Source: Escherichia phage vB_EcoM_PHB13
Sequence record: MK573636
Reading direction: 5' to 3' (one strand)
Length of the DNA stretch: 64,000 bases
The notes under the pieces are model-generated. The model saw nothing but the letters and a program-made list of their open reading frames with translations. It did not search any database and was not told the DNA's origin. Below are positions 24,617 through 61,463 of the stretch, in pieces; within the stretch, counting starts at the first letter, position 1, and each line of letters opens with the position of its first letter. Made by a program: the position numbers and the translations under genes.

Positions 24617-24645
24617 GCACACATACCAACTAAGGAGAATCAAAG

Positions 24646-24936
24646 ATGACCGCTGAACAATTAATCAAACATATCCGCAACATTATTTGGGATCTGTCTG
24701 GTGATAAAGAGGAACAGGCTGAACGCATTTTAGCTAAACTCTATGAGCGCCGTGACCGTGGAGTATCCGTAAAGAAAGTAGAAACTTTCAAAGAGTTATC
24801 TTTCATCGAAGCTAAAAAGGATGGATTAATTTATCAGTTGACAGATGGTTACTGGTGCTATGATAATACTCGCTATGACACCGCGACTGATGCATTAAAA
24901 GCATGTAATGACCATCTTCGCAAAACTACAATTTGA
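24646..24936 (+). CDS. hypothetical early protein
   Basis: 96 aa behind a promoter cassette. Confidence 0.45.
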   Translation: MTAEQLIKHIRNIIWDLSGDKEEQAERILAKLYERRDRGVSVKKVETFKELSFIEAKKDGLIYQLTDGYWCYDNTRYDTATDALKACNDHLRKTTI

Positions 24937-24946
24937 GGATTATATT

Positions 24947-25144
24947 ATGAAGGTTAAAACATTGGCTGATATGGATGAGATCGAGACTCAAGTACATGCG
25001 GCGCTAGTCGGTTATGAGTTTGGTCGATTCCTTAATAAGTTCCATGATTATAAATGCTTAAATTGTGGTGCTCATAACGTAATTGGTGCTTGCTGTATTA
25101 ATCCTGTTATAGTACCATATAAAAGAAATGAAACAGAAGAGTGA
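24947..25144 (+). CDS. Cys-rich small protein
   Basis: About 65 aa from GAGGATTATATT-ATG; CxxC and CC motifs. Confidence 0.4.
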   Translation: MKVKTLADMDEIETQVHAALVGYEFGRFLNKFHDYKCLNCGAHNVIGACCINPVIVPYKRNETEE

Positions 25145-25154
25145 GGAATATAGA

Positions 25155-25412
25155 ATGAATGCCAACGAACAAGTAATACCGCCACCTTTCGGTCGCATTC
25201 CTATAGTTATCACAAAGTCAAATATGTCTTTCGTTGAGGTTGGTGAGCGTACACACATAACAACGATGCACGGAAAACAGTATATTTGGTCATCTTTCTG
25301 TAAATCGTATGAGCTTTTAAGCTGGGCGATTGATGTATGGAAAATTGAATATGAAGTAATTACAGAAGAGAGAGGAATACAAAATGAAAAAGTTGATGGC
25401 TACATTTCATGA
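25155..25412 (+). CDS. small paralogous protein
   Basis: About 85 aa; ITKSNMSFVEVGERTHITTM...SWAIDVWKIEYEVITEE duplicated in the next ORF. Confidence 0.45.
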   Translation: MNANEQVIPPPFGRIPIVITKSNMSFVEVGERTHITTMHGKQYIWSSFCKSYELLSWAIDVWKIEYEVITEERGIQNEKVDGYIS

Positions 25413-25474
25413 CATGCGAGATCTACCAGGTTTAGCACATATCGATTTTCCTGTTACTATGGAAGTGTCGGAAT

Positions 25475-25819
25475 ATGACGGTTATCATGATATTCTGTTC
25501 ATTAAAAAATACTGAGTTTATCCGCTTAGGCGCTAAACCTGCTGTGCTATACCCAGAAGGAAACCGGACAGCGGTCAGAAAAACAAATTCTGTTAAATTG
25601 TCATTTAGTTCAGATGTTGGCTTGGAACCCGCTTTCGGATATACTCCGGTCGAGATCACAAAATCGAATACTTCTTTCGTGAAAGTTGGAGAGAAAACGC
25701 ATATTTCAACTATGCCGAACGGTGCACAATATCTATGGTCCGATTTCTGCCAGCGTTATGAGCGTTTATCATGGGCTACCCGCTTATGGTGTGTTGAGTA
25801 TAAGGAGATCACAAAATGA
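25475..25819 (+). CDS. small paralogous protein
   Basis: Paralog of 25155 (EITKSNTSFVKVGEKTHISTM...SWATRLWCVEYKEITK); start uncertain. Confidence 0.4.
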   Translation: MTVIMIFCSLKNTEFIRLGAKPAVLYPEGNRTAVRKTNSVKLSFSSDVGLEPAFGYTPVEITKSNTSFVKVGEKTHISTMPNGAQYLWSDFCQRYERLSWATRLWCVEYKEITK

Positions 25820-26064
25820 TCACCGGATATATTCCATATTCAACGACAAAACACATTATCGGATTTGAAGACATAGAAAAGTCTTGCTTTCCTCTCAAGG
25901 TTGAAGTAGACTTTATTACAGCGAACGGATGGGCTTACGTCACTGTTTCAGAAATGAAGCGAGTGGGGTGGGAAAACTGCATACACCTACCGCATCTTAT
26001 CCTAGATGTTCGCGCTGGTGAAATTGATATTGCTGGAAAGATCTATGGAGATAATGTAACATGA
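25816..26064 (+). CDS. hypothetical protein
   Basis: 82 aa; ATGA overlap. Confidence 0.4.
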   Translation: MITGYIPYSTTKHIIGFEDIEKSCFPLKVEVDFITANGWAYVTVSEMKRVGWENCIHLPHLILDVRAGEIDIAGKIYGDNVT

Positions 26065-26258
26065 AAATTGAAATTATTGATGACGGTGGATTTTCTTTCA
26101 TGAATGGCGTTAAACTTCCTATTATCGTGGAAGGTCGTCGGTATGGGCTTGATTATCTTGTAGAAACGCAGGAACTACAAAAAGCTGGAGTGCCGATTAA
26201 AGGTTATTTTCCTGAGTATGAATGGTGTTTTCGTGCCAATGAAGCATGGGTAGTGTAA
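26061..26258 (+). CDS. small protein, KIEII/GVKLPII family
   Basis: 65 aa (MKIEIIDDGGFSFMNGVKLPIIVEG...YEWCF). Confidence 0.45.
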   Translation: MKIEIIDDGGFSFMNGVKLPIIVEGRRYGLDYLVETQELQKAGVPIKGYFPEYEWCFRANEAWVV

Positions 26259-26276
26259 CTAATTGAGGATTATATT

Positions 26277-26534
26277 ATGAAGATTGAAATTATTAGTGAT
26301 GCCGATTATTCTTTCTTGAAAGGTGTTAAACTTCCGATCATTGTTAGAGGAACTCCCTTCTATGATAGTTTTTTGGTAACGACCAAAGAATTACGCAAAG
26401 CTGGCGTTTCCTTTGAGGGAATTTACAATGATGATTATGAATGGTGTTTCTTGGATAGATTTGCCCGTAAAGCAGAAAAAGCACGAAAAGAATCATGCTT
26501 TGCTCGCTTTAATAACTGGTTGAGGAAGCTGTAA
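26277..26534 (+). CDS. small protein, KIEII/GVKLPII family
   Basis: 85 aa (MKIEIISDADYSFLKGVKLPIIVRG...YEWCF), tandem paralog. Confidence 0.45.
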   Translation: MKIEIISDADYSFLKGVKLPIIVRGTPFYDSFLVTTKELRKAGVSFEGIYNDDYEWCFLDRFARKAEKARKESCFARFNNWLRKL

Positions 26535-26872
26535 TGAACGAACCGAAAATGTATTTGTTGCTGAATGATTCAGGATACACCTTCTTACAAGGTGTCGAAA
26601 GTGATTCCCGTCCGATTGTATATGGCAAGGAGCATCCGACCATTCCTGGGATCATTCTTGTTACGACAAGATCACTTCGTCGAGTGTCGGAAAGCCCATA
26701 CCTACAAAACGTAAAGCAAGACCGAGAATGGGCTTTCGAGTTGGGTAAAGACCTTGTTGAATGGGTAAACTGTGAAGACAAGAACCAAAGAAATCATGAA
26801 AAGAAGATTGCACGACTTGAACATAGAAGAAAACTTGATGAAATCAAAAACAGGATTCTACAATCAATGTAA
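26534..26872 (+). CDS. small protein, KIEII/GVKLPII family (divergent)
   Basis: 112 aa (..DSGYTFLQGVESDSRPIVYG...REWAF). Confidence 0.4.
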   Translation: MNEPKMYLLLNDSGYTFLQGVESDSRPIVYGKEHPTIPGIILVTTRSLRRVSESPYLQNVKQDREWAFELGKDLVEWVNCEDKNQRNHEKKIARLEHRRKLDEIKNRILQSM

Positions 26873-27101
26873 CAGAGTATTCATTGTCCTGATGGAGTCG
26901 GAAAACTATCCTGAACTCTCTAAAACGCGTTTTCCGTGCGTTGTTGAAGCATATAAGGTAAATGCACCGGATAAACAGTTTATCGTGTTAGCTAGCGAAA
27001 TAGAGCGGCTAGGGGCGATTCCTAAACATGATGAATACGTGTTTCGTAAGGTGTACTCTGTACATCATTTTGATGTAGTAGTTAATTTACTAAAATCATA
27101 A
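26772..27101 (+). CDS. hypothetical protein
   Basis: ORF-track frame; the true start is probably an internal ATG near 26892 after the upstream stop. Confidence 0.3.
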   Translation: MKTRTKEIMKRRLHDLNIEENLMKSKTGFYNQCNRVFIVLMESENYPELSKTRFPCVVEAYKVNAPDKQFIVLASEIERLGAIPKHDEYVFRKVYSVHHFDVVVNLLKS

Positions 27102-27109
27102 AAAAGTTG

Positions 27110-27138
27110 TTGACAGGGGATCGCGTATCCCCTATACT
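27110..27138 (+). promoter_or_regulatory. sigma70-type early promoter cassette with spacer palindrome
   Basis: TTGACA-GGGGATCGCGTATCCCC-TATACT followed by ...ACGAAACACACTTTCTTAAGGAGAATCAAA-ATG. Confidence 0.55.
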
Positions 27139-27180
27139 ACACACATCAAAACGAAACACACTTTCTTAAGGAGAATCAAA

Positions 27181-27459
27181 ATGAGCAATCTGTCTTTCGC
27201 TAAAGTAGAAATTTCTAAAACTCGCGGTGGCTTTAAAATCAAAACTTCCAATATCACTTCCTGCCGTGGTTGCGACCAGTTTGCTCGTGACCTTGCTGTG
27301 AAGCTGGGTATCAAAACCTTTACCGTTGAGAGCGGATCTAACTGGACTACCCTGATTGTTGCTGCCGCTTGGATCAATGGCGAGTATGTGGAAAAAGCAT
27401 ACTTTGACATTTTCTACGACTACGAAGAAAAATGCTTTTATGCACTGCAAGACATGTAA
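27181..27459 (+). CDS. hypothetical early protein
   Basis: 92 aa behind a promoter cassette. Confidence 0.45.
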   Translation: MSNLSFAKVEISKTRGGFKIKTSNITSCRGCDQFARDLAVKLGIKTFTVESGSNWTTLIVAAAWINGEYVEKAYFDIFYDYEEKCFYALQDM

Positions 27460-27468
27460 GGAGGTATT

Positions 27469-27777
27469 ATGGATTTAAACGCGTTAGGCAGAAATCTTTC
27501 TATCTGGGCGGTAGGTGCAATGATCTCGTATCTTGTATTCTGCTTGTATGCCAGATTCGACAAGGACACTAAAGAGGTTGATATAGGAGCATTTTGTATT
27601 GCTGCGATCGTCTGGCCTATAACGTGGATTATTGTAGAAATTGTCATGATCTATAAAGGATTGAAATGTTTTGGTCTATCAATTGCTGGTAAGCCGGAAG
27701 CTAAACCGCGCACGCATAAAGGATTCAGTCCAAAACAGGAAGATGGCGGTCGATATAAACCGGAAGAAGATTTTTAA
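27469..27777 (+). CDS. small membrane protein
   Basis: 102 aa with two TM segments and a charged C-terminus. Confidence 0.4.
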   Translation: MDLNALGRNLSIWAVGAMISYLVFCLYARFDKDTKEVDIGAFCIAAIVWPITWIIVEIVMIYKGLKCFGLSIAGKPEAKPRTHKGFSPKQEDGGRYKPEEDF

Positions 27778-27783
27778 AAACTG

Positions 27784-27812
27784 TTGACATGAAAATGCGG
27801 TTATCCTATAAT
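27784..27812 (+). promoter_or_regulatory. sigma70-type early promoter cassette
   Basis: TTGACA-N17-TATAAT with ATGCGG...CCGCAT inverted repeat around the -10; leader of the GAGGATTATATT-ATG type. Confidence 0.55.
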
Positions 27813-27846
27813 AGCCGCATCAAATGAACGATGTGAGGATTATATT

Positions 27847-28155
27847 ATGTTTATCTCTTCTGCTACTCCAGTTAAAGTTTACGGCGAAACTGTGTATCTT
27901 CCGGCTGGCTATCGCTATGTTATCGTTGACCGTTACGGTGATGTATATGCTTTTAAAGGCCGTCCGGTTGAGATTGATGCTGAATATTGTACATGGGGAT
28001 ATAAAGCCGCTTACATGGATATTCCTGATTTGGGAGTACGCTTAGGAAGATTTGATAATGATGTTAAACCATGCTTGATTAAGTATGCATCCTATGGTAA
28101 AACTGTTAAACCAAATAGCGTCGGCTGGATTGATGACGGCGTTAACGTGAAATAA
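27847..28155 (+). CDS. hypothetical early protein
   Basis: 102 aa. Confidence 0.45.
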   Translation: MFISSATPVKVYGETVYLPAGYRYVIVDRYGDVYAFKGRPVEIDAEYCTWGYKAAYMDIPDLGVRLGRFDNDVKPCLIKYASYGKTVKPNSVGWIDDGVNVK

Positions 28156-28169
28156 TGTGAGGTGAATTT

Positions 28170-28463
28170 ATGCTGTCTACTCGTAAAATGGTTGTTGGTG
28201 TCGCTGAAAATGCTTTAGAAATCGCTGATGAGGCTTTGACCGTCGCTTATGTTCGACGTGAAGAACTGCTACTGAAACACGCGGATCTGTTGGTTGAACT
28301 GAAAGAGACTATGAAAGCGGGTAAAAGCAGTACCGCTATTGCCATTAAACTTTCTGATAGTGAAGATGAGATCGTGGAGATCCACACTAAGATCAAGGAA
28401 GTAGAAAAATACTCTGAAATGCTGCGACACAATCTTGATGAATTGGGGGTAAATCATGGCTAA
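28170..28463 (+). CDS. hypothetical protein
   Basis: 97 aa. Confidence 0.4.
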   Translation: MLSTRKMVVGVAENALEIADEALTVAYVRREELLLKHADLLVELKETMKAGKSSTAIAIKLSDSEDEIVEIHTKIKEVEKYSEMLRHNLDELGVNHG

Positions 28464-28677
28464 GTTACGATCTGGACGAATTTTAACGCTGGCTGAACTG
28501 AGAGAAAAAGGATTAGACCCTGATTCTGTCGGTATAAGACCTATTAATTACATTCTGTTTCTAGAGGGTAAACTCTTTACTAATGCTCATCCAGCATTAA
28601 ATGCACCACATTTTTATAAGTGCAATGACTTTAACGGTTATATCGTTCCAGAATATTTCTTAGAATTTGATGATTAG
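28456..28677 (+). CDS. hypothetical protein
   Basis: 73 aa. Confidence 0.4.
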   Translation: MAKLRSGRILTLAELREKGLDPDSVGIRPINYILFLEGKLFTNAHPALNAPHFYKCNDFNGYIVPEYFLEFDD

Positions 28678-28963
28678 TATAAAACACTCACCGACCGGAA
28701 AGGGGTCGGTGATTTTCAATGACGATAAACCGTTAATCTTAATTCGTAATGGTGACTGGACATTACACGATACCCGTGTTACTATCCATTCACCGCCTAA
28801 AGAGATTCAACGGGAATTGGTTAGGATCGCCCTAACCGATAAGCATAAAGAGGCGGTAGGCTATTCTCTTTTGAAGTTGGGTGTTGACTTTCCTTTCGAG
28901 TATACGCTAACATTCAGAGAGCAGTCAGTGCGATTAACAGAGATTCTATTCTCTGAGATATGA
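28667..28963 (+). CDS. hypothetical protein
   Basis: 98 aa. Confidence 0.4.
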   Translation: MMISIKHSPTGKGSVIFNDDKPLILIRNGDWTLHDTRVTIHSPPKEIQRELVRIALTDKHKEAVGYSLLKLGVDFPFEYTLTFREQSVRLTEILFSEI

Positions 28964-28973
28964 GGATTATATA

Positions 28974-29405
28974 ATGGTTTATCCAACTCCTAGTAAGATT
29001 TACATTGATGATACCCATTTTATGGTTGATATGATGGGTATAAAGTTTAGTGGTATTGTTAAAATTGTAGAATGGGAATTGCACGGTCAACCTGTCACTG
29101 ACTATGACCATTACATTCCTTTTTTGGGTGATGACAATTTTGTCTCGTTTGACCATGAAGGTTACATGATCTTTGAACAGTCTGACGTACCGACCTATCT
29201 GGCAATGATGCAAATTCCTACGAAGGTTTCTGTTGCTGAGGGTGATTGCGATTGCTGCGGTTGGTATAGTGTAACAGATATTAAGTTGCCATCCGGTAAA
29301 GAACTCTATAACGAAGACCATTTTGGAAACTGCAACTTTCCGTGTGATTGGGATGAATTTTTCGAACTGGTAGAAACTGAAAGAACTTATTTAAGGAAGG
29401 GATAA
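28974..29405 (+). CDS. hypothetical Cys-rich protein
   Basis: 143 aa; CDCC and CNFPC motifs. Confidence 0.4.
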   Translation: MVYPTPSKIYIDDTHFMVDMMGIKFSGIVKIVEWELHGQPVTDYDHYIPFLGDDNFVSFDHEGYMIFEQSDVPTYLAMMQIPTKVSVAEGDCDCCGWYSVTDIKLPSGKELYNEDHFGNCNFPCDWDEFFELVETERTYLRKG

Positions 29406-30220
29406 TGAAGAAAGCATTAGGTTTAATTCCCTATACTGGCAATAAGGAAAAGTTATTGCCTGGTGTTAGTAAGTATTTCCCTAAGCACTACAACCGCTTT
29501 GTTGATGCCTTTTGTGGTGGTTTGAGCGTGTCTCTGTATGTTGAAGGTGATGTGCTGGCTAATGACTATGATCACCGTTTAATTGACGCTTACAAGGCCA
29601 TTGATGCGTGTCCTGACCCAGTTTCTACGATCAAGCGGATTATTGCCGAGAATGGTTTGTCTCGCGATGATAAAGATGCTTACATGGCATTCCGCAAGAA
29701 GTATAACGAGAATCCAGATCCGCTATCTCTGTTTGTGTTGATTCAACATAGTTTTAGCAACATTAACCGCCATAACCGGAAGGGCGAATTTAATGCTAAT
29801 TTTGGTCGCCGGACTTTTAACGAAAACGCGGTAGAGCGTGTCCTGAATTTTAAGGAAGAAAACAAAGACGGTCGAATCAGTTTTACGTCTGGACGATATG
29901 ACGAGATCGAGATCTTGCCGGATGATTTCGTTTTCCTTGATCCGCCATATTGGATCACGTCGGCAGAATATAATAAGTTCTGGAGTGAAGAAGAAGAGAT
30001 TAAATTCTACATGTGGATAGAATCATTAATGTCTAGCGGTGCTAAGTTTGGATTAAGCAATGTTACTCACCACAAAGGGAAAGTTAACAACCATCTGCTC
30101 GATTTTATCGAACGTAATGATGTTTCTGTTGTTGAACTGGATAAAACATATTGTTTAGATCGTAGCGGGGGTAAAAAATCCGATACTAAGGAAGTTTATG
30201 TCACCAATGTTAAAATATGA
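29405..30220 (+). CDS. dam: DNA adenine methyltransferase (Dam-like, N6-A MTase)
   Basis: 271 aa; N-terminal AdoMet motif (FVDAFCGGLSV) and catalytic DPPY (FLDPPYW), typical of T4 Dam / GATC MTases. Confidence 0.85.
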   Translation: MKKALGLIPYTGNKEKLLPGVSKYFPKHYNRFVDAFCGGLSVSLYVEGDVLANDYDHRLIDAYKAIDACPDPVSTIKRIIAENGLSRDDKDAYMAFRKKYNENPDPLSLFVLIQHSFSNINRHNRKGEFNANFGRRTFNENAVERVLNFKEENKDGRISFTSGRYDEIEILPDDFVFLDPPYWITSAEYNKFWSEEEEIKFYMWIESLMSSGAKFGLSNVTHHKGKVNNHLLDFIERNDVSVVELDKTYCLDRSGGKKSDTKEVYVTNVKI

Positions 30221-30953: not shown

Positions 30954-30954
30954 C

Positions 30955-31236: not shown

Positions 31237-31260
31237 ATACCTTCTTTGGAGGGTGAATTT

Positions 31261-31734: not shown

Positions 31735-31737
31735 TAG

Positions 31738-31766: not shown

Positions 31767-31797
31767 ACTCCCATCTAATCAAGAAGGAGAATCAACA

Positions 31798-32084: not shown

Positions 32085-32645
32085 ATGGTACAGAAAACGT
32101 ATAAATTGTATCCGGCTAAGTCTTCAACTGATGCTGTTTTTGAACGAGGTCGTTATTACACTTTCCGTAATGCTGAGTCCGCAGAGGAATTTATCAAACG
32201 ATGTCCGCAACATAATAAGTTCTTGTATGACGTGCTTTGTAACGGCTTTAAAGTTCTCACTGTTGATGCGATGGGGCGTGTGTATCTGGTAGAAACTCAT
32301 GAGTATGAAGGTGCATCTGTTCTGATTGCTGCAAACGAGCGCAAATACTTTAAACGCATCACTAAAAAGCAGTTTGAAGAAATGAAACCAGTTAAGAAAG
32401 AAGAATCTCTGGGAGATCTGATTAACTTGTTTGGTAAAGTTCGCTCGATCTCCTTTGCGATTGAAGATGACATTACTGACAATAAAATCTTTATCAAGAG
32501 CGCGGAAGACCTGAAAGAGTTTCTTATTGAAAATAGATTTCGGCTGGAAACCTTTCTTGAAAGTGAAATTATTCGACATGATACTTACGCTAAATTCAGC
32601 GCCGATAAAGTAGCTGAACTGAAAGAGATCCAAAAGTCACTTTAA
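32085..32645 (+). CDS. hypothetical protein, FKVL/ERKYFKRI family
   Basis: About 186 aa from GAGGATTATATT-ATG; contains ...GFKVLTVDAMGRVYLVE...ERKYFKRITKKQFEEM. Confidence 0.45.
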   Translation: MVQKTYKLYPAKSSTDAVFERGRYYTFRNAESAEEFIKRCPQHNKFLYDVLCNGFKVLTVDAMGRVYLVETHEYEGASVLIAANERKYFKRITKKQFEEMKPVKKEESLGDLINLFGKVRSISFAIEDDITDNKIFIKSAEDLKEFLIENRFRLETFLESEIIRHDTYAKFSADKVAELKEIQKSL

Positions 32646-32648
32646 CAC

Positions 32649-32677
32649 TTGACATGATGAAACGGGAGTAGTAAGAT
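32649..32677 (+). promoter_or_regulatory. sigma70-type early promoter cassette with spacer palindrome
   Basis: TTGACA...GGGAGTAGTAAGATACTCCC... Confidence 0.55.
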
Positions 32678-32708
32678 ACTCCCATTTAAACAACTAGAGG
32701 ATTATATT

Positions 32709-33887
32709 ATGGCTAAATTCTTTGAAGGTCATTACTATGCATTCCGTGAAGGTGGTAAAGATGAGTTTCTAGACTTTTCTCGCTATTCAATTATTCTGAC
32801 CGATGCTTCGCGCCGTGGTCATATTCGGGTTGCTGAAATCGTCGAAAAGGGCTTTAAAGTATTAGAAAAAGATGACAACGGTCATGTTATTACTATTGAA
32901 GCTGGAGATGTAGTTTATTCCGCTGAGGATATCGTTTATTATTGGGCTACTATGATTATGCACGATGAGCGTAAATACTTTAAACGCATCTCAAAAGAGG
33001 CATACGAAGCGATGAACAAGAAAGAGGATGCAATGCCGACTTACTTTGAAAAAGGTAAATGTTATTCGTTTACACCAGAAGGTTTGCAAGAATTTAAGCG
33101 ATTCTGGGGAGAGCATGATCCAGATCACAAAGAAGCTATGAAACTTGTTGATTTTGTCGAATATGGCTTTTTAGTTGAAGAAGAATTGCACGGATCAGCT
33201 ACCATGATCACCGCGAAAGGTGAAACTGTTAAGGCAGATCGTTTTTGTGATCAATGGGCTTGTGTGTTTGATGGTGGCGAATTTGAATACTTCGCGGAAA
33301 TCACGAAACAACAATTTCATTCTATGCAAGCGGATGGTCAGAGATTTAAAGTAGGTGAACGCTACAAGCCAAATCAGCATAATTTGCCATATTGGTTTAC
33401 CGCTGAAACTGTATCAAGTCATGTTGTTGAAATTGTTCAAAAGCTGGGACAAGGATTTAAGGTGACTAAAGTAGATGATTATGGAAGTGTTGACGCGGTT
33501 GAAATTGATGGTGTAGAATATACACCGAAATCTTTCGGGCTTTGCTGGTATCACTTGATCAGCAATGATGAACGTTATAACTTTGTTGAACTGCCATCTG
33601 AACCGGAAGAAGCACTAGAAGATCATGATCATCTGTCTGAACTGGTTAAACTGTTTGGTGATCTGCCGGATGGTGTAGGCGTGGCGGTAATGGGTGAAGG
33701 TACTGTTATTCGCAACCTGAAAGACCTTAAAAAGTTCTTGATTGACATGCTGCCTAAACTTGATGATAATCTCGATAAAGATATTCAGAATCGCAAAGAA
33801 ATTGTTAAAGATACTGAAAAAGAGATCGAAGAGATTCGAGCAATTCGCCAGAAGGTGAAAGCAGTAAAGAAAAAAGTTAGTGCTTGA
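32709..33887 (+). CDS. hypothetical protein, FKVL/ERKYFKRI family (multi-module)
   Basis: 392 aa with at least three related internal modules (GFKVLEKDDNGHV..ERKYFKRISKEAYEAM; GFLVEEELHG...; GFKVTKVDDYGSV...). Confidence 0.45.
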   Translation: MAKFFEGHYYAFREGGKDEFLDFSRYSIILTDASRRGHIRVAEIVEKGFKVLEKDDNGHVITIEAGDVVYSAEDIVYYWATMIMHDERKYFKRISKEAYEAMNKKEDAMPTYFEKGKCYSFTPEGLQEFKRFWGEHDPDHKEAMKLVDFVEYGFLVEEELHGSATMITAKGETVKADRFCDQWACVFDGGEFEYFAEITKQQFHSMQADGQRFKVGERYKPNQHNLPYWFTAETVSSHVVEIVQKLGQGFKVTKVDDYGSVDAVEIDGVEYTPKSFGLCWYHLISNDERYNFVELPSEPEEALEDHDHLSELVKLFGDLPDGVGVAVMGEGTVIRNLKDLKKFLIDMLPKLDDNLDKDIQNRKEIVKDTEKEIEEIRAIRQKVKAVKKKVSA

Positions 33888-38252: not shown

Positions 38253-38262
38253 GGTGATTATT

Positions 38263-38790
38263 ATGGAATGGGAAGTTGGTAAAACTTACAAGATTGAATG
38301 CGAAGCGTCGAAAGCCGAACTGACTAAATTTTCGTCGTCTATTAACAGATGTATTGTTGACTTGTTGGCTGGTCGCCCGTTTAGGGTAGAAGACCTTGAC
38401 GATGATGGTGATGTTAGAGAAATTACTATTATTGGTAGTAATTTCGACTCTATGACGTTAAAAGAATCCCCTATTGGCTGTTCCGGTGTGTGGTTTTGGT
38501 CGGGTGAGCGTCGTTTCTTTACCGAAGTTACTATTGAACCTAAGATTCCAGATTCGGAAGAAAAAGAAGAAGACCTAACTTTAGAACGCCTGGGTCTGCT
38601 TATGGAAGCCTACGACATTCAGTTGATCGATAAGATGGGGTTACATAATAGCATTGCCAAAATTACTACCCTAGAAGGTATTAAGAGCGTGCTTGATGGT
38701 ATGCCTAGCCGGATCGGTGCTATCCGAGAATACAAGCAAACGCGCGACCGTATGATCCAATTAGAATCACGTATCAAAAATGAGAGATGA
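38263..38790 (+). CDS. WExGKTY-family protein (paralog 1)
   Basis: About 175 aa starting MEWEVGKTYK. Confidence 0.45.
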   Translation: MEWEVGKTYKIECEASKAELTKFSSSINRCIVDLLAGRPFRVEDLDDDGDVREITIIGSNFDSMTLKESPIGCSGVWFWSGERRFFTEVTIEPKIPDSEEKEEDLTLERLGLLMEAYDIQLIDKMGLHNSIAKITTLEGIKSVLDGMPSRIGAIREYKQTRDRMIQLESRIKNER

Positions 38791-38794
38791 TATT

Positions 38795-39259
38795 ATGAAA
38801 TGGGAAGCTGGTAAGACCTATGCGTGGAAAGATGTAAAAGATGCAAACCAATTTTTTAAATGGTATGATGTTGATTATTTGAAATATCTGAGATTACCGT
38901 TTAAAGTTGCGTCGGTTGATGCGAAAAAAGGATACGTGCGGTCTGTTTATCTTCATGATGGAACTTATATGAGTTCAACCGATGTAGGTCTATCTTGTTG
39001 GTTTCTGGATCATGACCGTAGCAGATTTGAAGAAATTATTATTCCAGAAGAATCTAAATTAATTGATCTTCTCAAGTTGGCGATGGATAATTATAAAATC
39101 CGCTTTGAATGCAAATCACATGCGGCTATCGGTGCTAACGCCTTGCGTCATATCTCCAGTTTTGAAGAGTTGAAAGATTTTCTTGACAAAATGCCGGAAA
39201 GGGTGCAAGCTATACAGGAAGCAGAGAAAGCATTAAACGAACTTGATAAAATCGGTTAA
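38795..39259 (+). CDS. WExGKTY-family protein (paralog 2)
   Basis: About 154 aa starting MKWEAGKTYAWKD. Confidence 0.45.
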   Translation: MKWEAGKTYAWKDVKDANQFFKWYDVDYLKYLRLPFKVASVDAKKGYVRSVYLHDGTYMSSTDVGLSCWFLDHDRSRFEEIIIPEESKLIDLLKLAMDNYKIRFECKSHAAIGANALRHISSFEELKDFLDKMPERVQAIQEAEKALNELDKIG

Positions 39260-39271
39260 GGGGAATATATT

Positions 39272-40096
39272 ATGAAATGGGAAATTGGTAAAACTTACAC
39301 CTGGAAAGACGAAAACGCTAAAACTGAGTTTATTACTAACGGAGAAGGTGTTCTTTCTCCACTTAACAGCGATATTAGTGCAGCTATTGGTGACAAGCCA
39401 TTTACCATCATCGAGATCGAGGGTAACGGTTGGATTGATGCAATAGAGCTAGACGGTGTTTATCATACGGCGAAAACTGCTACAGGAAAAGACATTTGGA
39501 AGTCAACATATTTGTTTAGTCCATTTGATAGAAAATTCTTTCGTGAAGTTGAAGAAGTTCCCCAGAAATGGGAAGTTGGTAAAACTTATACTTGGAAAGA
39601 TATTAAGGCTATGACCGACTTCTGTCATTATGCCGAAAACGTATCTAACCTTAATTATGTTATTGCACGAGCAATAAATTATAGACCTTTTACTGTTAAA
39701 AATGTTCGTCCATGTGGGCAAATTGATGTAATTGAAATTGATGGTAAAGACCATACTCTAATGAGCGCAACCGAAGATAGAGACCATAAAGGAACTAGCT
39801 GGTTTATTGATTCTGATAGAAAATTCTTTCGTGAAGTAGAAGAATTGGAAGTTATAACCACTGATTCTAAGATCGTTGGACAGTTGAAACGTCTGTTTAG
39901 TAGTCGTTACGGCCTGACAATGGTTAAATTTGGCGAAGCAAATGAAGGTAAAACCTTTGAACGTTTCGATGATTTCATTTCGGCACTTGACAAGATGGAT
40001 GAAATCATGCAAGATCGCCAGAAGATTAAAGACCTTCAAGAAGACATTAAACGTCGTGAAGTTGAATTTTTGATTGGTAAAGAGCGAGGATGGTAA
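39272..40096 (+). CDS. WExGKTY-family protein (paralog 3, internally duplicated)
   Basis: 274 aa with two copies of the module (MKWEIGKTYTWKD... and ...QKWEVGKTYTWKD..., each ending DRKFFREVEE). Confidence 0.45.
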   Translation: MKWEIGKTYTWKDENAKTEFITNGEGVLSPLNSDISAAIGDKPFTIIEIEGNGWIDAIELDGVYHTAKTATGKDIWKSTYLFSPFDRKFFREVEEVPQKWEVGKTYTWKDIKAMTDFCHYAENVSNLNYVIARAINYRPFTVKNVRPCGQIDVIEIDGKDHTLMSATEDRDHKGTSWFIDSDRKFFREVEELEVITTDSKIVGQLKRLFSSRYGLTMVKFGEANEGKTFERFDDFISALDKMDEIMQDRQKIKDLQEDIKRREVEFLIGKERGW

Positions 40097-54529: not shown

Positions 54530-54590
54530 GATAAAGTGTGTATAATGGCGGGTGTTGGGTGACGATACCCGCCAATGTGAGAAATATATT

Positions 54591-54779: not shown

Positions 54780-54790
54780 AGGTATTAATA

Positions 54791-55861: not shown

Positions 55862-55872
55862 CAATGGTAGTA

Positions 55873-55895
55873 AAGGGGCTACGTGCCCCTTTTTC
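55873..55895 (+). terminator. intrinsic terminator after uvsX
   Basis: GGGGCTACGTGCCCC hairpin plus TTTTT. Confidence 0.6.
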
Positions 55896-55916
55896 ATATC
55901 TAGAGAGGATTATATT

Positions 55917-56234: not shown

Positions 56235-57643
56235 TTAAAACTATCTTTTCACAGTTGATTTACAATGGCGCATTCTTTACGAATGTATGGCCTCACCTTA
56301 AAGCGGACTACTTCACCGAAGACGAAGAAAAACTGATTTATAAGCTGATTAAAAAGCACGTAGACGAATATTCCAATATTCCTACGCCAACAGCATTACA
56401 GATTGCTTTAGACAAGGAGAGAGGCAATCAGACAACATATGAAGGGGCTAAAACTCTTCTTGATTCGCTTGAGAATACACCGGAAGACCTTGATTGGTTA
56501 ATGAAGGAAACCGAAAAATTTATTCGTGACCGTGCCATGTATAATGCAATGTCACGGGCGCTAGAGATTCAGGCGAACGCACAACTACCAAAAGAGAAAC
56601 AGAATAAGAAATTGCCGAGTGAGGGTGCTATTCCTGAGATCATGCAGGAAGCACTATCCATTACGTTTGATTCTGATGTAGGTCATGACTGGTTTAATGA
56701 CTTTGAAAAACGATTCTTGCTATATCAGACTAAGGCGAATAAGATCCCGTTTAAGCTGCCGATGTTGAATAAAATCACGAAAGGAGGTGCGGAAAGAAAA
56801 ACGCTAAATGTGTTGCTTGCTGGTGTAAACGTTGGTAAATCGCTTGGCTTGTGTTCTCTTGCTGCGGATTATATGGAATGTGGTTATGATGTATTGTATA
56901 TATCAATGGAGATGGCAGAGCATGTCGTAGCAAAACGTATCGACGCAAACTTGCTTGACATTACATTAGATGAATTGGATAATGGTAATGTTTCTTTTGC
57001 GGAATATTCCGCACGCATGAAGCGTGTTAAGAATAAGAAGATCGGAGATCGTCCGGTTGGAAAATTGATGATCAAGCAGTATCCGACTGGTGGCGCAAAC
57101 TCCAATCACTTTGAGGCGTTAATGAATGAATTGCGACTCAAGAAACAGTTTAAACCTGATGTTGTGATTGTTGACTATCTGGGGATTTGCGCATCGTCTC
57201 GCTTGCGTGTATACTCTGAAAATAGTTACACACTAGTTAAGGCGATTGCGGAAGAACTGCGAGGATTTTTTGTTAAGTGGGATGTTGTTGGTTGGACTGC
57301 GGCACAGACTACCCGCGCGGGTTGGGATGCTTCCGACCTTAACATGAGTGATACCGCTGAATCAGCAGGTCTTCCGGCTACTGCCGACTTTATGTTGGGT
57401 GTTATCGAAACCGAAGACCTGGCTAAAATGGGCGTCCAACTCATGAAGCAGATCAAGTCTCGTTACGGTGATAAGAACTATTATTCACGGTTTAACGTTG
57501 GTGTGAAGAAAGGCAATCAGCGTTGGTATGAAGTACCAAACCAGATCGCAGATCAGGAGAATACACAAGTTAAACCACAAAGCGCACAGCAAGCCGAGAA
57601 ACGCGAAAAACTCGACGAGCTAGCAAATACCATGACTTTCTAA
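56231..57643 (+). CDS. 41: replicative DNA helicase gp41 (DnaB-like)
   Basis: 470 aa; Walker A AGVNVGKS, Walker B VVIVDYLG, DnaB-family layout; T4 gp41 is 475 aa. Confidence 0.85.
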   Translation: MIKTIFSQLIYNGAFFTNVWPHLKADYFTEDEEKLIYKLIKKHVDEYSNIPTPTALQIALDKERGNQTTYEGAKTLLDSLENTPEDLDWLMKETEKFIRDRAMYNAMSRALEIQANAQLPKEKQNKKLPSEGAIPEIMQEALSITFDSDVGHDWFNDFEKRFLLYQTKANKIPFKLPMLNKITKGGAERKTLNVLLAGVNVGKSLGLCSLAADYMECGYDVLYISMEMAEHVVAKRIDANLLDITLDELDNGNVSFAEYSARMKRVKNKKIGDRPVGKLMIKQYPTGGANSNHFEALMNELRLKKQFKPDVVIVDYLGICASSRLRVYSENSYTLVKAIAEELRGFFVKWDVVGWTAAQTTRAGWDASDLNMSDTAESAGLPATADFMLGVIETEDLAKMGVQLMKQIKSRYGDKNYYSRFNVGVKKGNQRWYEVPNQIADQENTQVKPQSAQQAEKREKLDELANTMTF

Positions 57644-57693
57644 TAAAATGCGCCCTACGGGGCGCTGGTGAATGATTTGATAGGAGATATAAC

Positions 57694-58329
57694 ATGATCG
57701 CTAATGCTTTACCGCCAAAATGGATCGTAAGTCGCTTTTATACTCTCAAGGAAGGTAACGCACCTGATGGTCGTCCGATCCGAGATCTGTTTCTGGAGAT
57801 GACTACCGCCGAAGCACAATTTTATAATGATCTGACAGACGATAAGCCGTTTCTTGTAAATTCTGTGGATCTTGATGGTAATGTTACGTCAATTATCGCA
57901 CATGGTGGGGAAGTGAAAAATATTACTTCTCTGCGTGAACACGGTTGGGAAATTGCTTGTGTATTTCCTGCGGATGTACGCGGATTCTTTGATGAGGTAT
58001 CTGATATTAAAGTAAATGCACTAGAACCATATGACGAGATCCCACCACTGAAAGAAGAAAAAGAGTTGACACCGGAAGATGTAGATAGTACACTACACCC
58101 AGACCTATTTAAGAAGATTAGCGGTTTATGGACTGTTACCCTGCATCCAACCGCATTAGGTCTAGAATTGGGTATGCCAACTTATTCTGATATTGATAAT
58201 TGGACTAAGCATATTGATAAAGATGTTGAAAAACAGCGAAATAATGCTAAAATGCAACTTAAAGAGAAACGAAAAGATCTTGAACGACAACTGAAAGAAA
58301 CCAAACATTTGCTTTCTACGTTCGCTTGA
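57694..58329 (+). CDS. hypothetical protein
   Basis: 211 aa. Confidence 0.4.
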   Translation: MIANALPPKWIVSRFYTLKEGNAPDGRPIRDLFLEMTTAEAQFYNDLTDDKPFLVNSVDLDGNVTSIIAHGGEVKNITSLREHGWEIACVFPADVRGFFDEVSDIKVNALEPYDEIPPLKEEKELTPEDVDSTLHPDLFKKISGLWTVTLHPTALGLELGMPTYSDIDNWTKHIDKDVEKQRNNAKMQLKEKRKDLERQLKETKHLLSTFA

Positions 58330-58359
58330 TCTATAATGAAACTCTAAGGAGACTATATT

Positions 58360-58734
58360 ATGAAAAATATGATTACGCCGGAAGATGTAGCATTTAAAAC
58401 CGCAAATAACGGAGACATTCTTATTTTTATCGACGGTAAACATGCTGGTATGGTTGAACCGGAAGGACGCTGGGGAGTCGCCGAACTTTATGATGTGGCT
58501 GGTGTAGATCCGAAAACTGCAATTGTTTTTCTGGCGGATAAAGATCAAATGCGTCGAAAAATTGCTGCGCTCTATAATGAAGCATTGTATTTCTACGAAC
58601 CGTTTCATCGTATTAAAACGATCTCCCGCGTGACTCGAAAAGATGTTAATGCTTGTGTTATCAAGATTGTAGAGAATCAGGATAAACTGACGAAAGACCA
58701 GATTGTTGACTTACTGAAAGAGATTATTCTATGA
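58360..58734 (+). CDS. hypothetical protein
   Basis: 124 aa from AGGAGACTATATT-ATG. Confidence 0.4.
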   Translation: MKNMITPEDVAFKTANNGDILIFIDGKHAGMVEPEGRWGVAELYDVAGVDPKTAIVFLADKDQMRRKIAALYNEALYFYEPFHRIKTISRVTRKDVNACVIKIVENQDKLTKDQIVDLLKEIIL

Positions 58735-59054
58735 TTGGCTTTAAACAGTTTGTTGAAGAAAATAAACTCAAAGAAGATATGACCGCTGGCGATGCTGGCG
58801 GCAATCCTGAGAAGATCGCAGCAGGTGAAACGAGCGGATCTATTACCAATCGTGGACCTAGTGTAGCGGGTAAAGAAAAACGCAAAAAGGAGAAAGACGG
58901 TGCTTAGTATCATCATGTTTATCGTTGGCTTGCTGTCCGCTATTATCGGTGTTGTTGTTTTCGGATTATCTGGACACAAAACAAAAACAGAAAAGTTATC
59001 CGAGATCACAATGTATGTTGGTGTAGTTCTCATTCTGTTGTCGGTGGCGCTTAA

Positions 59055-59258
59055 ATGATTACGATGAAATGTCTTAAAAGCACATATGCACTTTTTGAAG
59101 CCGGAAAAGAATATGAATTTACAGAACTTGACCCGGTAGGACGTTTTCGTGTATTCTCTTACACATCGCCAGATGGTAGTGTCTACAAATTTGGCTTAGA
59201 TGAAAACGGAGAGAATGAAAATGAAAGTGTAGGAACTTTCATGAAATTTGAGCTATAA
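59055..59258 (+). CDS. hypothetical protein
   Basis: 67 aa. Confidence 0.35.
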   Translation: MITMKCLKSTYALFEAGKEYEFTELDPVGRFRVFSYTSPDGSVYKFGLDENGENENESVGTFMKFEL

Positions 59259-59267
59259 GAGGTTATT

Positions 59268-60296
59268 ATGATTTACTACGCAGATTATGAAATAGCGGAA
59301 AAAGCCATATACGGCGAACGAAATTTTAAACGGTTGCATACTAGCTCATTTACGCTGGTCTGTAGTTGTCCGATCTGCGGTGACTCAAAGAAAAATCATA
59401 CTCAAGCGCGATTCCGTATCTATACCTATAAGGATAGTTTGCGTTGCGGCTGTTTCAACTGTAACTACAATCAGCCGTTAGGTGAATTTCTCAAACAGTA
59501 TAAGCCGGACCTATTCAGGGAATGGCTTATGGAACGACGGAAGGAACAAGGCGACCACAAGAACACCACGTTCAAGCCACTGAAAAAGGTAGAAAAGCCG
59601 GAGATTAAGAAAGTGCAAACATTGCCTTTCTGCGAGAGATTAGATACTCTTCCGGCTAATCATCCTATAATAAAGTATGTCAGTGATCGTTGCATCCCTC
59701 ACGATAAATGGGATCTTCTGTATTTCACGAGAGAATGGCAAAAGGTAGCAAATCACATTAAGGCTGATACTTTCAAGAATCCACAACCTGAACCGCGTTT
59801 AGTGATTCCTATCTTTAACCGCGAGAACAAGATAGAATCCATTCAGGGGCGAGCATTGAGAAAGGATTACGGAAAGACCAAATATATGACGATTAAAACT
59901 CACGAGTTAGCGAGTAAGGTCTATGGTCTTGAACGCGCCGATCCGAGTAAACCAGTGTATTTCTTAGAAGGTCCGATCGATTCATTGTTTATTGATAACG
60001 GGTGTGCAATTACTGGCGGTACGTTGGGATTAGATGAAATCCCTTTCCCAGACCAGCGAGTGTTTGTACTTGATGCGGAACCACGGTCTGCCGATACAAT
60101 GCACCGACTGGAAAAGTTTATCAACGCAGGGGAAAAGATTGTATTATGGGATCGTTGCCCGTGGCATTCTAAAGACGTTAACGCCATGATTCAGGATGAG
60201 GGTGCTACACGCGACCAGATCATGGAATATATCAAAGAGAACACCGTACAAGGTCTGATGGCTAAAATGCGGTTTATGAAATATTGTAAATTTTAA
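59268..60296 (+). CDS. 61: DNA primase gp61
   Basis: 342 aa, same length as T4 gp61; N-terminal zinc ribbon (CSCPICGD...CGCFNC) followed by TOPRIM region. Confidence 0.85.
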   Translation: MIYYADYEIAEKAIYGERNFKRLHTSSFTLVCSCPICGDSKKNHTQARFRIYTYKDSLRCGCFNCNYNQPLGEFLKQYKPDLFREWLMERRKEQGDHKNTTFKPLKKVEKPEIKKVQTLPFCERLDTLPANHPIIKYVSDRCIPHDKWDLLYFTREWQKVANHIKADTFKNPQPEPRLVIPIFNRENKIESIQGRALRKDYGKTKYMTIKTHELASKVYGLERADPSKPVYFLEGPIDSLFIDNGCAITGGTLGLDEIPFPDQRVFVLDAEPRSADTMHRLEKFINAGEKIVLWDRCPWHSKDVNAMIQDEGATRDQIMEYIKENTVQGLMAKMRFMKYCKF

Positions 60297-60310
60297 TTAA
60301 TGAGGTGAAT

Positions 60311-60829
60311 ATGTCAGAATTTAATTCTTGTGCTGGTCTGGTTAACGAAAAAGATATTAACGCGGCTATCGCCGCATATCATCACGCTATTGCAGAAGGT
60401 AAAGATCCGTTTCAGGTGATGCTCGAAATGCAAACTGGTTTGCAGGTTGCATTATCCGAAAAATTTGATTGGGTCCCAAATCCAACTAAGCTAGAGACTT
60501 GCGGTGAAATGCTGGATTGGATGCAACGGATGGATGACGCTATCGCAGACGAAACACGAGAGCTTTACACATCGCTGGGTGGAATGTCCAATGGTAAAGA
60601 TGCAAGTGCAATCTGGAAAATGTGGAAAAAGAACCACGGAGAAGCGCGAGCGCGTAAATTCTCTGAACTGTCACCGGAAGATCAGCTTGAAGTGAAATTT
60701 GAATTTGTGGACGCGATCCACTTCATTCTGTCAAAGATGATCCCGCTGGGTATTGACGCTCAAGAACTCTTTATTCTGTACTATCTGAAAAATGCTGAAA
60801 ACTTCGCCCGTCAAGAACGCGGCTACTAA
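60311..60829 (+). CDS. gp56-like nucleotide pyrophosphatase candidate (assignment by position and size)
   Basis: About 172 aa acidic protein after gene 61, where T4 carries gene 56 (dCTPase, 171 aa). No active-site motif verified. Confidence 0.4.
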   Translation: MSEFNSCAGLVNEKDINAAIAAYHHAIAEGKDPFQVMLEMQTGLQVALSEKFDWVPNPTKLETCGEMLDWMQRMDDAIADETRELYTSLGGMSNGKDASAIWKMWKKNHGEARARKFSELSPEDQLEVKFEFVDAIHFILSKMIPLGIDAQELFILYYLKNAENFARQERGY

Positions 60830-60865
60830 AAATTAGTTGACACTACTCTATCATGGTTTTATTAT

Positions 60866-60896
60866 GCCTCCCGTCGAAAGATTGGAGGCTTTTTTA
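60866..60896 (+). terminator. terminator-like hairpin sequestering the SD of the downstream gene
   Basis: GCCTCCCGTCGAAAGATTGGAGGC hairpin plus TTTTTT, ending 3 nt before the ATG at 60899; the only GGAGG upstream of that ATG is the 3-prime arm of the stem. Confidence 0.5.
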
Positions 60897-60898
60897 TT

Positions 60899-61402
60899 AT
60901 GCAATTTACACCAGAAGAACTTAACATCATTGATGAGGTGATGAACTCTAAAGAAAATATCGATATGTCGATCCTTAATGGATTGATTGAAAAGACTGAG
61001 CGGTTAGTGCATCATGAAGCCTTGTATCGCGGTGTGAGCAAAAGAGAAGGTCGTAAGCTGGATACCTTAATTGTAGGCGATTCTTTCGTTGTAGAGCGTC
61101 CTATGAGCTTTACGCCACTGCAATCAACAGCAGAGGACTTTGCAACCGATGTTTATGCAACAGGAAAGATTATTGCAATAAAACCTACCAAGCCTTGCAT
61201 GAATTATTACGAACATGCTATTGACCGAGTGGTGTCTAAAGAGTATGACAATCCGACTACTCGACTGTCTTTGTATGCTATGTTGGCAGATGAGCGCGAG
61301 TGCATATACAAGACAGGGACGACCATGATCCTTGACGAGATCGAGGAAGTTTACGCGTGTAATGGCGATCTGATAGAGATTTACAAATTTTCTTTAATTT
61401 AA
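60899..61402 (+). CDS. putative mono-ADP-ribosyltransferase (ModA/ModB-like)
   Basis: 167 aa with an ordered R (ALYRGVSKR) - S/T (MSFTPLQST) - ExE (DERE) triad like R-S-E ADP-ribosyltransferases; position corresponds to T4 modA/modB between 56 and srd. Confidence 0.4.
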   Translation: MQFTPEELNIIDEVMNSKENIDMSILNGLIEKTERLVHHEALYRGVSKREGRKLDTLIVGDSFVVERPMSFTPLQSTAEDFATDVYATGKIIAIKPTKPCMNYYEHAIDRVVSKEYDNPTTRLSLYAMLADERECIYKTGTTMILDEIEEVYACNGDLIEIYKFSLI

Positions 61403-61405
61403 GTG

Positions 61406-61434
61406 TTGACAGCACAAACCAGATAGACAATAAT
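61406..61434 (+). promoter_or_regulatory. sigma70-type early promoter cassette
   Basis: TTGACA-N17-(C)AATAAT followed by ACACACATACCAACTAAGGAGAATCAATT-ATG, a leader identical to the one at 24617-24645. Confidence 0.55.
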
Positions 61435-61463
61435 ACACACATACCAACTAAGGAGAATCAATT

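Follow-up and report, generated by a model that had tools for sequence, protein, structure and literature searches.

Promoter-early stem-loop (PeSL) cassettes were described in RB49 and phi1 by Arbiol, Comeau, Kutateladze, Adamia and Krisch in 2010 (PMC2839356), and this work was extended by Comeau et al. in 2014 (PMC4122927). According to the 2010 paper, about 51–52 such cassettes occur per genome, each running from an AT-rich upstream region to a Shine-Dalgarno sequence and start codon. The paper also documents that the family recombines, the mapped crossovers falling in the -10 to ATG interval, and reports promoter and terminator activity in vivo for PeSL206/205 and PeSL211/210, which are members other than those treated here. 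A second relevant system is the inactivation of early mRNAs by the RegB endoribonuclease with ribosomal protein S1. In T4 early mRNAs, RegB/S1 targets follow the consensus GGAGRAYARAA, of which GGA does not vary (Durand et al. 2006, PMC1702504). The Shine-Dalgarno sequence of RB49 regB is GGAU and is cleaved by RegB (review PMC3014915).

We analyzed a 64,000-nt stretch of Escherichia phage vB_EcoM_PHB13 (MK573636), referred to as the window. This phage is a Krischvirus (RB49/phi1/JSE-like, T4-type coliphage), and both loci considered here match only Krischvirus records, at 90–100%. The first-pass annotation had reported an identical 27-nt leader ahead of an open reading frame at 24646 and an srd-like gene at 61464, and had read it as recent copying of a regulatory cassette. 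The repeat was confirmed, and start codons are present at both positions. The exact identity, by sequence and alignment, covers 26 nt rather than 27, with copy 1 at 24618–24643 and copy 2 at 61436–61461. The quoted 27-mer is exact at 61435–61461, while at 24617–24643 its first base is G instead of A. Our preferred reading, with a probability of roughly 80%, is that these 26-nt stretches form the downstream part of two early promoter/leader cassettes belonging to the genus-wide PeSL family and that their identity is ancestral, not recent. The cassette family itself is already known from RB49-like coliphages.

All features given below lie on the + strand. Locus 1 carries the tail-fibre adhesin gene g38 (23765–24544), assigned by Pfam GP38 and by comparison of relatives. 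An intrinsic terminator follows (24551–24582; terminator scan and sequence), consisting of the 9-bp hairpin GGGCTATCCTTCGGGATAGCCT at 24551–24572 and a T-tract. This stem-loop is part of the locus 1 cassette, and the terminator is kept in relatives carrying g38 at this locus. The early sigma70-type promoter (24586–24616, 12/12 consensus match) comprises GTG-TTGACA (24589–24594), a 16-nt spacer with TGn and TATAAT (24611–24616). Upstream of it, TTTTTGTTTTTTGG stands ahead of GTGTTGACA, 40 nt past the g38 stop codon, and the promoter site is also annotated as such in GEC-3S. Copy 1 contains the discriminator CACAC, a predicted start A at 24623, the 5'UTR AUACCAACU, UAAGGAG at 24631–24637 and the spacer. 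It precedes a 96-aa early gene with no assigned function (24646–24936), identified by homology as the RB49p078 homolog (phrog_14129).

Krischvirus genomes differ in whether the g38 module occupies locus 1, and its right-hand junction is located between the -10 and the shared leader. The window, RB49, JSE, Cognac and pEJ01 carry g38 with its promoter half. A different promoter half replaces both in G2248, Skers, kvi, MIZ4, UPWr_E1 and FL04. Roughly every second genome sampled has an exchanged promoter half, in step with the presence or absence of g38, and the leader is retained. Judged from these sequences, the joining of two promoter halves to one leader at locus 1 is an exchange of the PeSL type.

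At locus 2, the early sigma70-type promoter of srd (61403–61434, 11/12 consensus match) comprises GTG-TTGACA (61406–61411), a 17-nt spacer and AATAAT (61429–61434). It lies directly 3' of the modB stop codon, which is contained in the upstream sequence AAATTTTCTTTAATTTAA, and is annotated as a promoter in GEC-3S as well. No stem-loop or terminator was detected at the srd cassette by terminator scan, and folding of 61380–61440 was no better than that of shuffles (z -0.08). In copy 2, the predicted start A is at 61441 and UAAGGAG is at 61449–61455. The gene downstream (61464–62219) encodes a 251-aa Srd homolog, which corresponds to RB49p013 and matches phrog_1400 'Srd anti-sigma factor' (E 6e-74). 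Among 14 genomes, no gene insertion, deletion or replacement was seen at the srd locus.

Pairwise alignment of 24612–24649 with 61430–61467 gave 35/38 matching positions. Similarity extends beyond the 26 nt in both copies, upstream into ATAAT of the -10 hexamer and downstream into ATGA, and GTGTTGACA at the -35 is common to both loci. The description of the two promoters as different holds for the flank upstream of them and for spacer length (16 vs 17 nt), but not for the GTG-prefixed -35 or for 5/6 bases of the -10. Both copies contain CACAC just ahead of the predicted start, the short 5'UTR AUACCAACU, UAAGGAG as a 7-nt Shine-Dalgarno sequence and an A-rich spacer, with the ATG 8 nt downstream. 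In both, transcription is predicted to start at the A located 7 nt after the -10.

By scanning, 27 cassettes combining promoter and leader were recovered from the window and 61 from RB49. Their shared architecture is GTTGACA-N16/17-TAnAAT, (A/G)CACNC, a predicted start A, an A/C-rich 5'UTR and AAGGAGAATCAA-ATG, and the length from start site to Shine-Dalgarno ranges from about 9 to 25 nt across the family. Members found by scan include TTGACA-ggggatcgcgtatcccc-TATACT-ACACACATCAAAACGAAACACACTTTCTTAAGGAGAATCAAAATG at 27110–27183 and ...CATAAT-GCACACATCGACAACAAAGGAGAATCAAAAATG at 22175–22236. Scanning and pair comparison also identified the cassettes at 11227–11304 and 12189–12262 (leader ...ACGAACTACTAAGGAGTATCAAAATG), which have 27 nt exactly in common.

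The possibility that the repeat reflects chance between AT-rich leaders was tested, and two matches occurred in 0/100 dinucleotide-preserving shuffles. A fairer null is provided by comparing promoter-leader cassettes within one genome. Against other cassette pairs, the 26-nt pair falls in the top 0.4% and is not unique: it ranks 2nd among the window's 351 pairs, and in RB49 it is tied 6th–7th of 1830. The longest exact runs among cassette pairs are 39, 37, 34, 27, 27, 26 and 26 nt, placing the srd/locus 1 pair within a continuum. Family consensus (CACACAT plus AAGGAGAATCAA) accounts for about 19 of the 26 nt. The ACCAACT core alone is private to these two leaders, and it falls in an 'ATACC' leader subfamily with 11 members in RB49. 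Pieces of both leaders recur as a mosaic in RB49: AGGAGAATCAATTATG, from the 3' end at srd, is found again at 122816, and AAGGAGAATCAAAGATG and TATAATGCACACATACCAAC, from the 3' and 5' ends of locus 1, at 159693 and 121736, respectively.

The large share of family consensus is one point in favor of a rival reading, in which the two leaders converged independently on a transcription-start/translation optimum in E. coli, with an ACCAACT core of no shared origin. Leaders of this kind are strongly A/C-biased, so that with 1830 pairs it is conceivable for 7 nt to agree by coincidence, and look-alikes occur in unrelated Drexlerviridae (CATAATGCACACATCAACCAATCAGGAGAATCAACGATG and ...GGAGAATCAAAAATG). 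However, leader length varies within the family, and length and sequence are both identical in the srd/locus 1 pair only. Exchange within the family is moreover evident from the 34–39 nt pairs and from clear mosaics. We consider convergence improbable and infer common descent of the 7-nt core.

The leaders were also compared with RegB/S1 targets. The window encodes a RegB endoribonuclease (regB, 17932–18354; phrog_1323 endoribonuclease, E 4e-50) with its own ribosome site GGATAATAAAATG, which reads GGAU-AAUAAAA and can be compared with the GGAU of RB49 regB. At locus 1, GGAGAATCAAA (24634–24644), formed by the Shine-Dalgarno core and A-rich spacer, matches the published GGAGRAYARAA at 10/11 positions, with C at position 8, and is a candidate RegB/S1 site. 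At locus 2, GGAGAATCAAT matches at 9/11, with C at position 8 and T at position 11. Predicted folds from +1 to +68 were weaker than those of shuffles, with GGAG largely unpaired; the prediction is for less folding than in shuffles in the locus 1 transcript (z +0.88) and for an unstructured srd leader transcript (z +1.65). Ribosome sites with at most one mismatch from the RegB consensus were promoter-proximal in 9/9 cases in the window and 23/26 in RB49 (Fisher p 1e-7 and 6e-17, respectively), statistics that are indicative only, given a crude gene caller with 140 calls in 64 kb. This enrichment would follow from cassette ancestry alone. Compared with GGAGRAYARAA, the leader element GGAGAAUCAAA is possibly a RegB/S1 cleavage site. 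That the AAGGAGAAUCAAA-AUG end works as a RegB/S1 site, making each cassette a complete pulse-expression module, is a tentative idea that we consider rather unlikely. If true, a cassette would bring along a terminator for insulation, a promoter of consensus type, a strong ribosome site and its own site for mRNA inactivation, and any captured gene would first be switched on and later off. Still less likely is that, on top of such cleavage, the private AUACCAACU core would co-regulate srd and the 96-aa gene.

In a separate reading, the two genes would share a dedicated post-transcriptional operator, with the AUACCAACU core binding a phage protein or small RNA. The core is indeed private to srd and the 96-aa gene, is linked to both in all genomes, and is kept at locus 1 even with the promoter half replaced. 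Yet RNA folding of the leaders finds no structure, which argues against a riboregulator, and neither locus matched Rfam at E <= 1. Several genomes carry substitutions within the core (A>G, C>A), which is thus tolerant of change, and no functional link connects the two genes. Outside the genus, the leader was not seen to travel with the 96-aa gene: its one clear remote homolog in an E. coli phage, 2725-N35 (Drexlerviridae, 47% identity), has a different leader. We give an operator very little credence.

The age of the identity was assessed in relatives taken singly from the phage collection, with 14 genomes for locus 1 and 14 for locus 2; protein-based locus searches in IMG/VR yielded 2 and 3 loci only. 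The leader precedes srd and the 96-aa gene in every relative examined; 22–26 nt of it stand there in RB49, JSE, Cognac, an ECD7-like genome and metagenome contigs, among others. In JSE, the identity between the two loci is 22 nt, from CATACC on. The exact 22-mer lies upstream of only srd or the RB49p078 homolog in 8/8 loci from IMG/VR and metagenomes, and exact-pattern scans of IMG/VR and metagenome contigs, with 4 stretches each, revealed no other gene contexts. Since the leader stands at the same two genes in all relatives examined, its identity predates the sampled genus.

The two loci have drifted independently. At srd, pEJ01, MIZ4 and kvi have CATGCC in the leader, Cognac has CATACAAAC and GEC-3S has AAACACAT; the locus 1 leader is unchanged in Cognac, kvi and MIZ4. 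At locus 1, GGAT occurs in pEJ01 and FL04, while srd of pEJ01, the only one of these two read at srd, still has GGAG. A CAATACC variant was also found at locus 1. Among the 14 + 14 genomes, point changes were never mirrored at the other locus of the same genome, and these comparisons give no sign of ongoing conversion between the loci. Variable sites at locus 1 number 3/27 in the leader vs 5/33 and 10/60 in the flanks, and at locus 2 they number 2/27 vs 4/33 and 5/60. Special purifying selection on the leader was considered and dropped, with variable-site density about equal to that of the flanks. Low overall divergence would account for the kept leader no less than selection would.

Recent copying or gene conversion between the two loci in the lineage of this genome would fit 26 nt of exact identity inside non-identical flanks and a family known to recombine in exactly the -10 to ATG interval, but it appears highly unlikely and already largely refuted by an identity found across relatives, by CATGCC, CATACAAAC and AAACACAT at srd and GGAT and CAATACC at locus 1 that are all unmirrored, and by a 22-mer tied to the same two genes everywhere. 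What stands of the first-pass annotation is that the leader belongs to a repeated, recombining cassette, of which it is the 3' part; a simple locus-to-locus copy does not stand.

If the repeat represents ancestral cassette halves, host sigma70 RNA polymerase would fire the near-consensus cassette promoters immediately after infection. The leader, an unstructured A/C-rich 5'UTR (AUACCAACU) followed by UAAGGAG as a putatively strong Shine-Dalgarno sequence, would then allow efficient ribosome loading on the first gene. The GGAGAAUCAAA element would probably make the mRNA a substrate of RegB and ribosomal protein S1, shutting off early translation later. The copies would be identical by shared ancestry in a recombining cassette family, from before the sampled Krischvirus genomes diverged, and low divergence and functional constraint would keep them alike with no recent transfer.

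The value of this result lies mainly in annotation, as the repeat should be labeled as two PeSL-family early promoter/leader cassettes and not as a fresh duplication. At locus 1, the joint through which the gp38 host-range adhesin moves in or out lies within the handful of nucleotides that separate the -10 from the shared leader, a clear-cut instance, in natural genomes, of the shuffling model already published. In addition, promoter-proximal ribosome sites of the genus resemble RegB/S1 targets.

Compared with the PeSLs, our cassettes come from the same genus and share a consensus sigma70 promoter, an AT-rich upstream region and a Shine-Dalgarno sequence with start codon at the 3' end. Locus 1 additionally has its stem-loop ahead of the -35, an arrangement that defines one of the five subclasses described, and coincides with the g38 indel. 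The srd copy differs in having no stem-loop and no plasticity in 14 genomes. Because the stem-loop is absent, the srd cassette is better regarded, on its sequence, as a family member of the early promoter/leader type and not as a PeSL in the strict sense. The PeSL papers stress the promoter and stem-loop, and the stereotyped 5'UTR and the srd/locus 1 pair are not discussed in the accessible portions of their text. T4 early promoters and the 'PeSL-like' elements of the IP locus are similar in that repeated early-promoter-based linkers flank variable small genes; Arbiol et al. consider the T4 elements analogs and not homologs, with T4-type early promoters and weaker stem-loops (PMC2839356). Relative to the RegB/S1 targets of T4, the leaders have C at position 8 (GGAGAAUCAAA) where A is strongly preferred, and RB49 RegB is a divergent homolog. 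They resemble those targets in the GGAG of an early-gene Shine-Dalgarno sequence, an adjacent A-rich 7-mer, single-stranded RNA as predicted, and a regB homolog in the window.

Both loci matched only RB49-like T4-type coliphages of the genus Krischvirus (58–65 records, 90–100% identity), and the + strand of the window is the RB49 record's minus strand. The gene at 24646 (locus 1) is RB49p078 in RB49, encoding a 96-aa hypothetical protein directly 3′ of the gp38 adhesin gene. Family searches assigned this protein to phrog_14129 (unknown function) and the gene 5′ of the locus 1 cassette to Pfam GP38. The gene at 61464 (locus 2) is srd in RB49 terms, with modB directly 5′, and its 251-aa product matched phrog_1400 (Srd, E 6e-74). 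Public records variously name this gene (61464–62219) Srd anti-sigma factor, sigma-factor decoy, or anti-termination protein. Its product had no Pfam match, and residues 20–170 gave weak PHROG matches to HNH/endonuclease VII families.

The exact identity between the loci spans 26 nt (24618–24643 and 61436–61461). The first-pass annotation had claimed 27 nt, which holds for 61435–61461 but fails at the first base of 24617–24643. Two matches arose in 0 of 100 shuffles. Promoters and coding regions had been described as different; the spacers (16 vs 17 nt), upstream flanks, and coding regions do differ, but pairwise alignment showed further identity in GTGTTGACA at –35, ATAAT of the –10, and ATGA at the start codon. 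Repeat finding grouped the loci as family D12 (35/38 identity). Other repeat families (D7, D10, D14, D20) are small ORF paralogs, tandem or nearby, at 38259–39626, 26061–26344, and 32337–33016; four copies begin MKWE.GKTY.WKD, and further copies are paired at 26061/26277 and 32337/32967.

At locus 1, a terminator with a 9-bp hairpin and T-tract (24551–24582) is followed by a sigma70 promoter with TGn (12/12; TTGACA 24589–24594, TATAAT 24611–24616). The locus 2 promoter (11/12, 61406–61434) adjoins the modB stop codon and has no stem-loop. Counting 7 nt from the –10, transcription would start at the A of CAT (24623 and 61441). With the start so placed, the common stretch would open with 5 untranscribed bases and the start site, continue through a 9-nt A/C-rich 5′UTR and UAAGGAG, and close with a spacer that sets the AUG 8 nt downstream at both loci.

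By repeat finding and a promoter-plus-ribosome-site scan, the window has 27 such cassettes and the full-length RB49 genome 61. The family design runs from a T-rich stretch or terminator through GTTGACA, N16–17 (often holding a GGGG...CCCC stem-loop), TAnAAT, and (A/G)CACNC to A, continuing with TCGAAACGAAAC... or TACC(G)AAAC... and ending in AAGGAGAATCAA(A)ATG. Eleven RB49 cassettes are of the "ATACC" type; the leader of one, at 122881 (ACACACATACCGAAACGAACTAGGAGAATCAATTATG), departs from the srd leader chiefly in one additional GAAACG-type unit. Cassette pairs were ranked by their longest exact run from –10 to ATG, with medians of 6–7 nt. The srd/RB49p078 pair ranked second of 351 in the window, below 11227 vs 12189 (27 nt), and tied for sixth to seventh of 1830 in RB49, after runs of 39, 37, 34, 27, and 27 nt. 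About 19 of the 26 common bases are family consensus, and ACCAACT is private to this pair. The cassettes are also mosaic: the 3′ ends of both leaders reappear in different third cassettes (RB49 122816 and 159693), and the 5′ end of locus 1 reappears at RB49 121736. The two leaders are members of a family, not a lone pair, and the earlier description of a regulatory cassette was right. Other cassettes, sharing as much as the flagged pair or more (27–39 nt), lie at window 11227–11304 vs 12189–12262, at 27110–27183, and at RB49 123294, 118654, and 117165. The RB49 123294 cassette is chimeric, with 37 nt at its 5′ end identical to the 43031 cassette (window 27110) and 34 nt at its 3′ end identical to the 58685 cassette (window 11227).

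Locus 1 has undergone real exchange, as it occurs in two configurations among relatives. In the window, RB49, JSE, Cognac, pEJ01, and an ECD7-like genome, g38 and a terminator precede GTGTTGACA-N16-TATAAT-GCAC(A/G)C and the leader. G2248, Skers, kvi, MIZ4, UPWr_E1, FL04, and an IMG/VR genome have no g38 there; immediately after a small upstream gene comes TTGTTGACA-cggggagaaatccccg-TATAAT-GATAAC, and this promoter half is attached to the same CATACCAACTAAGGAGAATCAAA leader and 96-aa gene. Two promoter halves thus sit on one leader, so the joint lies in the few bases between –10 and predicted start site. By comparison with L010, L011, and L024–L027, the gp38 gene and promoter half (window 23765–24616) are present at this site in some Krischvirus genomes, and another stem-loop promoter replaces them in others. 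Partial gp38-like matches occur elsewhere, on the opposite strand, in kvi and FL15.

Pure convergence of the 7-nt private core could draw on the A/C bias of the leaders and on look-alikes in Drexlerviridae, where CATAAT, an A/C-rich leader, and GGAGAATCAA-ATG occur at 401–450 of L012, ~9468 and 7905 (minus) of L034, and 150–203 of L035. Given the proven exchange in the family, convergence is less economical than shared descent. The Drexlerviridae concerned include Tlsvirus Stevie_ev116 and Braunvirinae 2725-N35, whose look-alikes follow a conserved AATAGCACTTTTTG motif and have no TTGACA –35 where the upstream region was read; these stretches may reflect either convergence or transfer between phage families. 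A dedicated operator common to srd and the 96-aa gene found no support: folding of the predicted mRNA 5′ ends was weaker than in shuffled controls (z +0.88 and +1.65), an Rfam search of both loci gave no match, substitutions are tolerated in the core, and the leader is a different one in a remote homolog of the 96-aa gene.

Among relatives, both leaders were present throughout the 14 genomes read at locus 1 and the 14 read at locus 2. In the phage collection, 32-mer matches were confined to 58 Krischvirus records. The exact 22-mer CATACCAACTAAGGAGAATCAA occurred in 4 IMG/VR and 4 metagenome stretches, with srd or the RB49p078 homolog downstream in 8/8. The srd leader reads CATGCC in pEJ01, MIZ4, and kvi, CATACAAAC in Cognac, and AAACACAT in GEC-3S, and CATACC is kept at locus 1 of Cognac, kvi, and MIZ4. 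At locus 1, GGAT occurs in pEJ01 and FL04, and GCACGC in JSE, pEJ01, and one metagenome contig; in JSE and pEJ01, the positions that vary at locus 1 are unaltered in srd. With substitutions locus-specific and no concerted evolution across these 14 + 14 genomes, the identity therefore predates the divergence of the sampled genus. Recent conversion between the loci, and with it the "recent" copying of an otherwise correct first-pass observation, is contradicted by the leader's distribution in relatives and by the two loci having drifted independently. By variable-site counts, neither leader is clearly better conserved than its flanks (locus 1, 3/27 vs 5/33 and 10/60; locus 2, 2/27 vs 4/33 and 5/60). 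The persisting identity needs no explanation beyond low divergence and ordinary constraint.

Functionally, host sigma70 polymerase would start at the A, and the A/C-rich unstructured leader with its 7-nt Shine-Dalgarno would give strong first-gene translation. GGAGAAUCAAA may then serve as a RegB/S1 target, by resemblance to GGAGRAYARAA as defined in T4 (PMC1702504). We give this RegB step roughly even odds. The leader's site has C at position 8, where T4 prefers A. Ribosome sites within one mismatch of the T4 motif are promoter-proximal in 9/9 cases in the window and 23/26 in RB49, an enrichment that cassette ancestry alone would also give. The window's regB homolog (17932–18354) has a perfect A-rich RegB/S1-type ribosome site with U at position 4 (17920–17934; GGAUAAUAAAA, listed also as GGATAATAAAATG), in keeping with the cleavage reported for the GGAU Shine-Dalgarno of RB49 regB (PMC3014915). 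Window-wide, ribosome sites form two stereotyped classes: GGAGAATCAAAATG is confined to genes that come first behind an early promoter (9/9), whereas GAGGATTATATTATG serves many genes, mostly not promoter-proximal (5 proximal, 10 not). Examples of one class lie at 13179–13202, 24931–24954, 26261–26284, 27831–27854, and 32693–32716, and of the other at 9730–9748 and 27168–27186.

The leader pair falls within a family that earlier work had described for RB49-like phages. Arbiol et al. 2010 (PMC2839356) reported 51–52 promoter-early stem-loop cassettes (PeSLs) in RB49 and phi1, each with a sigma70-consensus early promoter, an AT-rich upstream region, a stem-loop at any of five positions, and a 3′ end formed by the downstream gene's Shine-Dalgarno and start codon, conserved over ~100 bp. 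The same study showed promoter and terminator activity experimentally for some PeSLs and mapped crossovers between –10 and ATG, exactly the segment flagged at first pass. Both sites carry a promoter annotation in the GEC-3S record. Locus 2 lacks the stem-loop and is strictly an early promoter/leader of the same family, whereas locus 1 has every sequence feature of a PeSL, and its exchange joint lies in the same place as the published mini-circle junctions.
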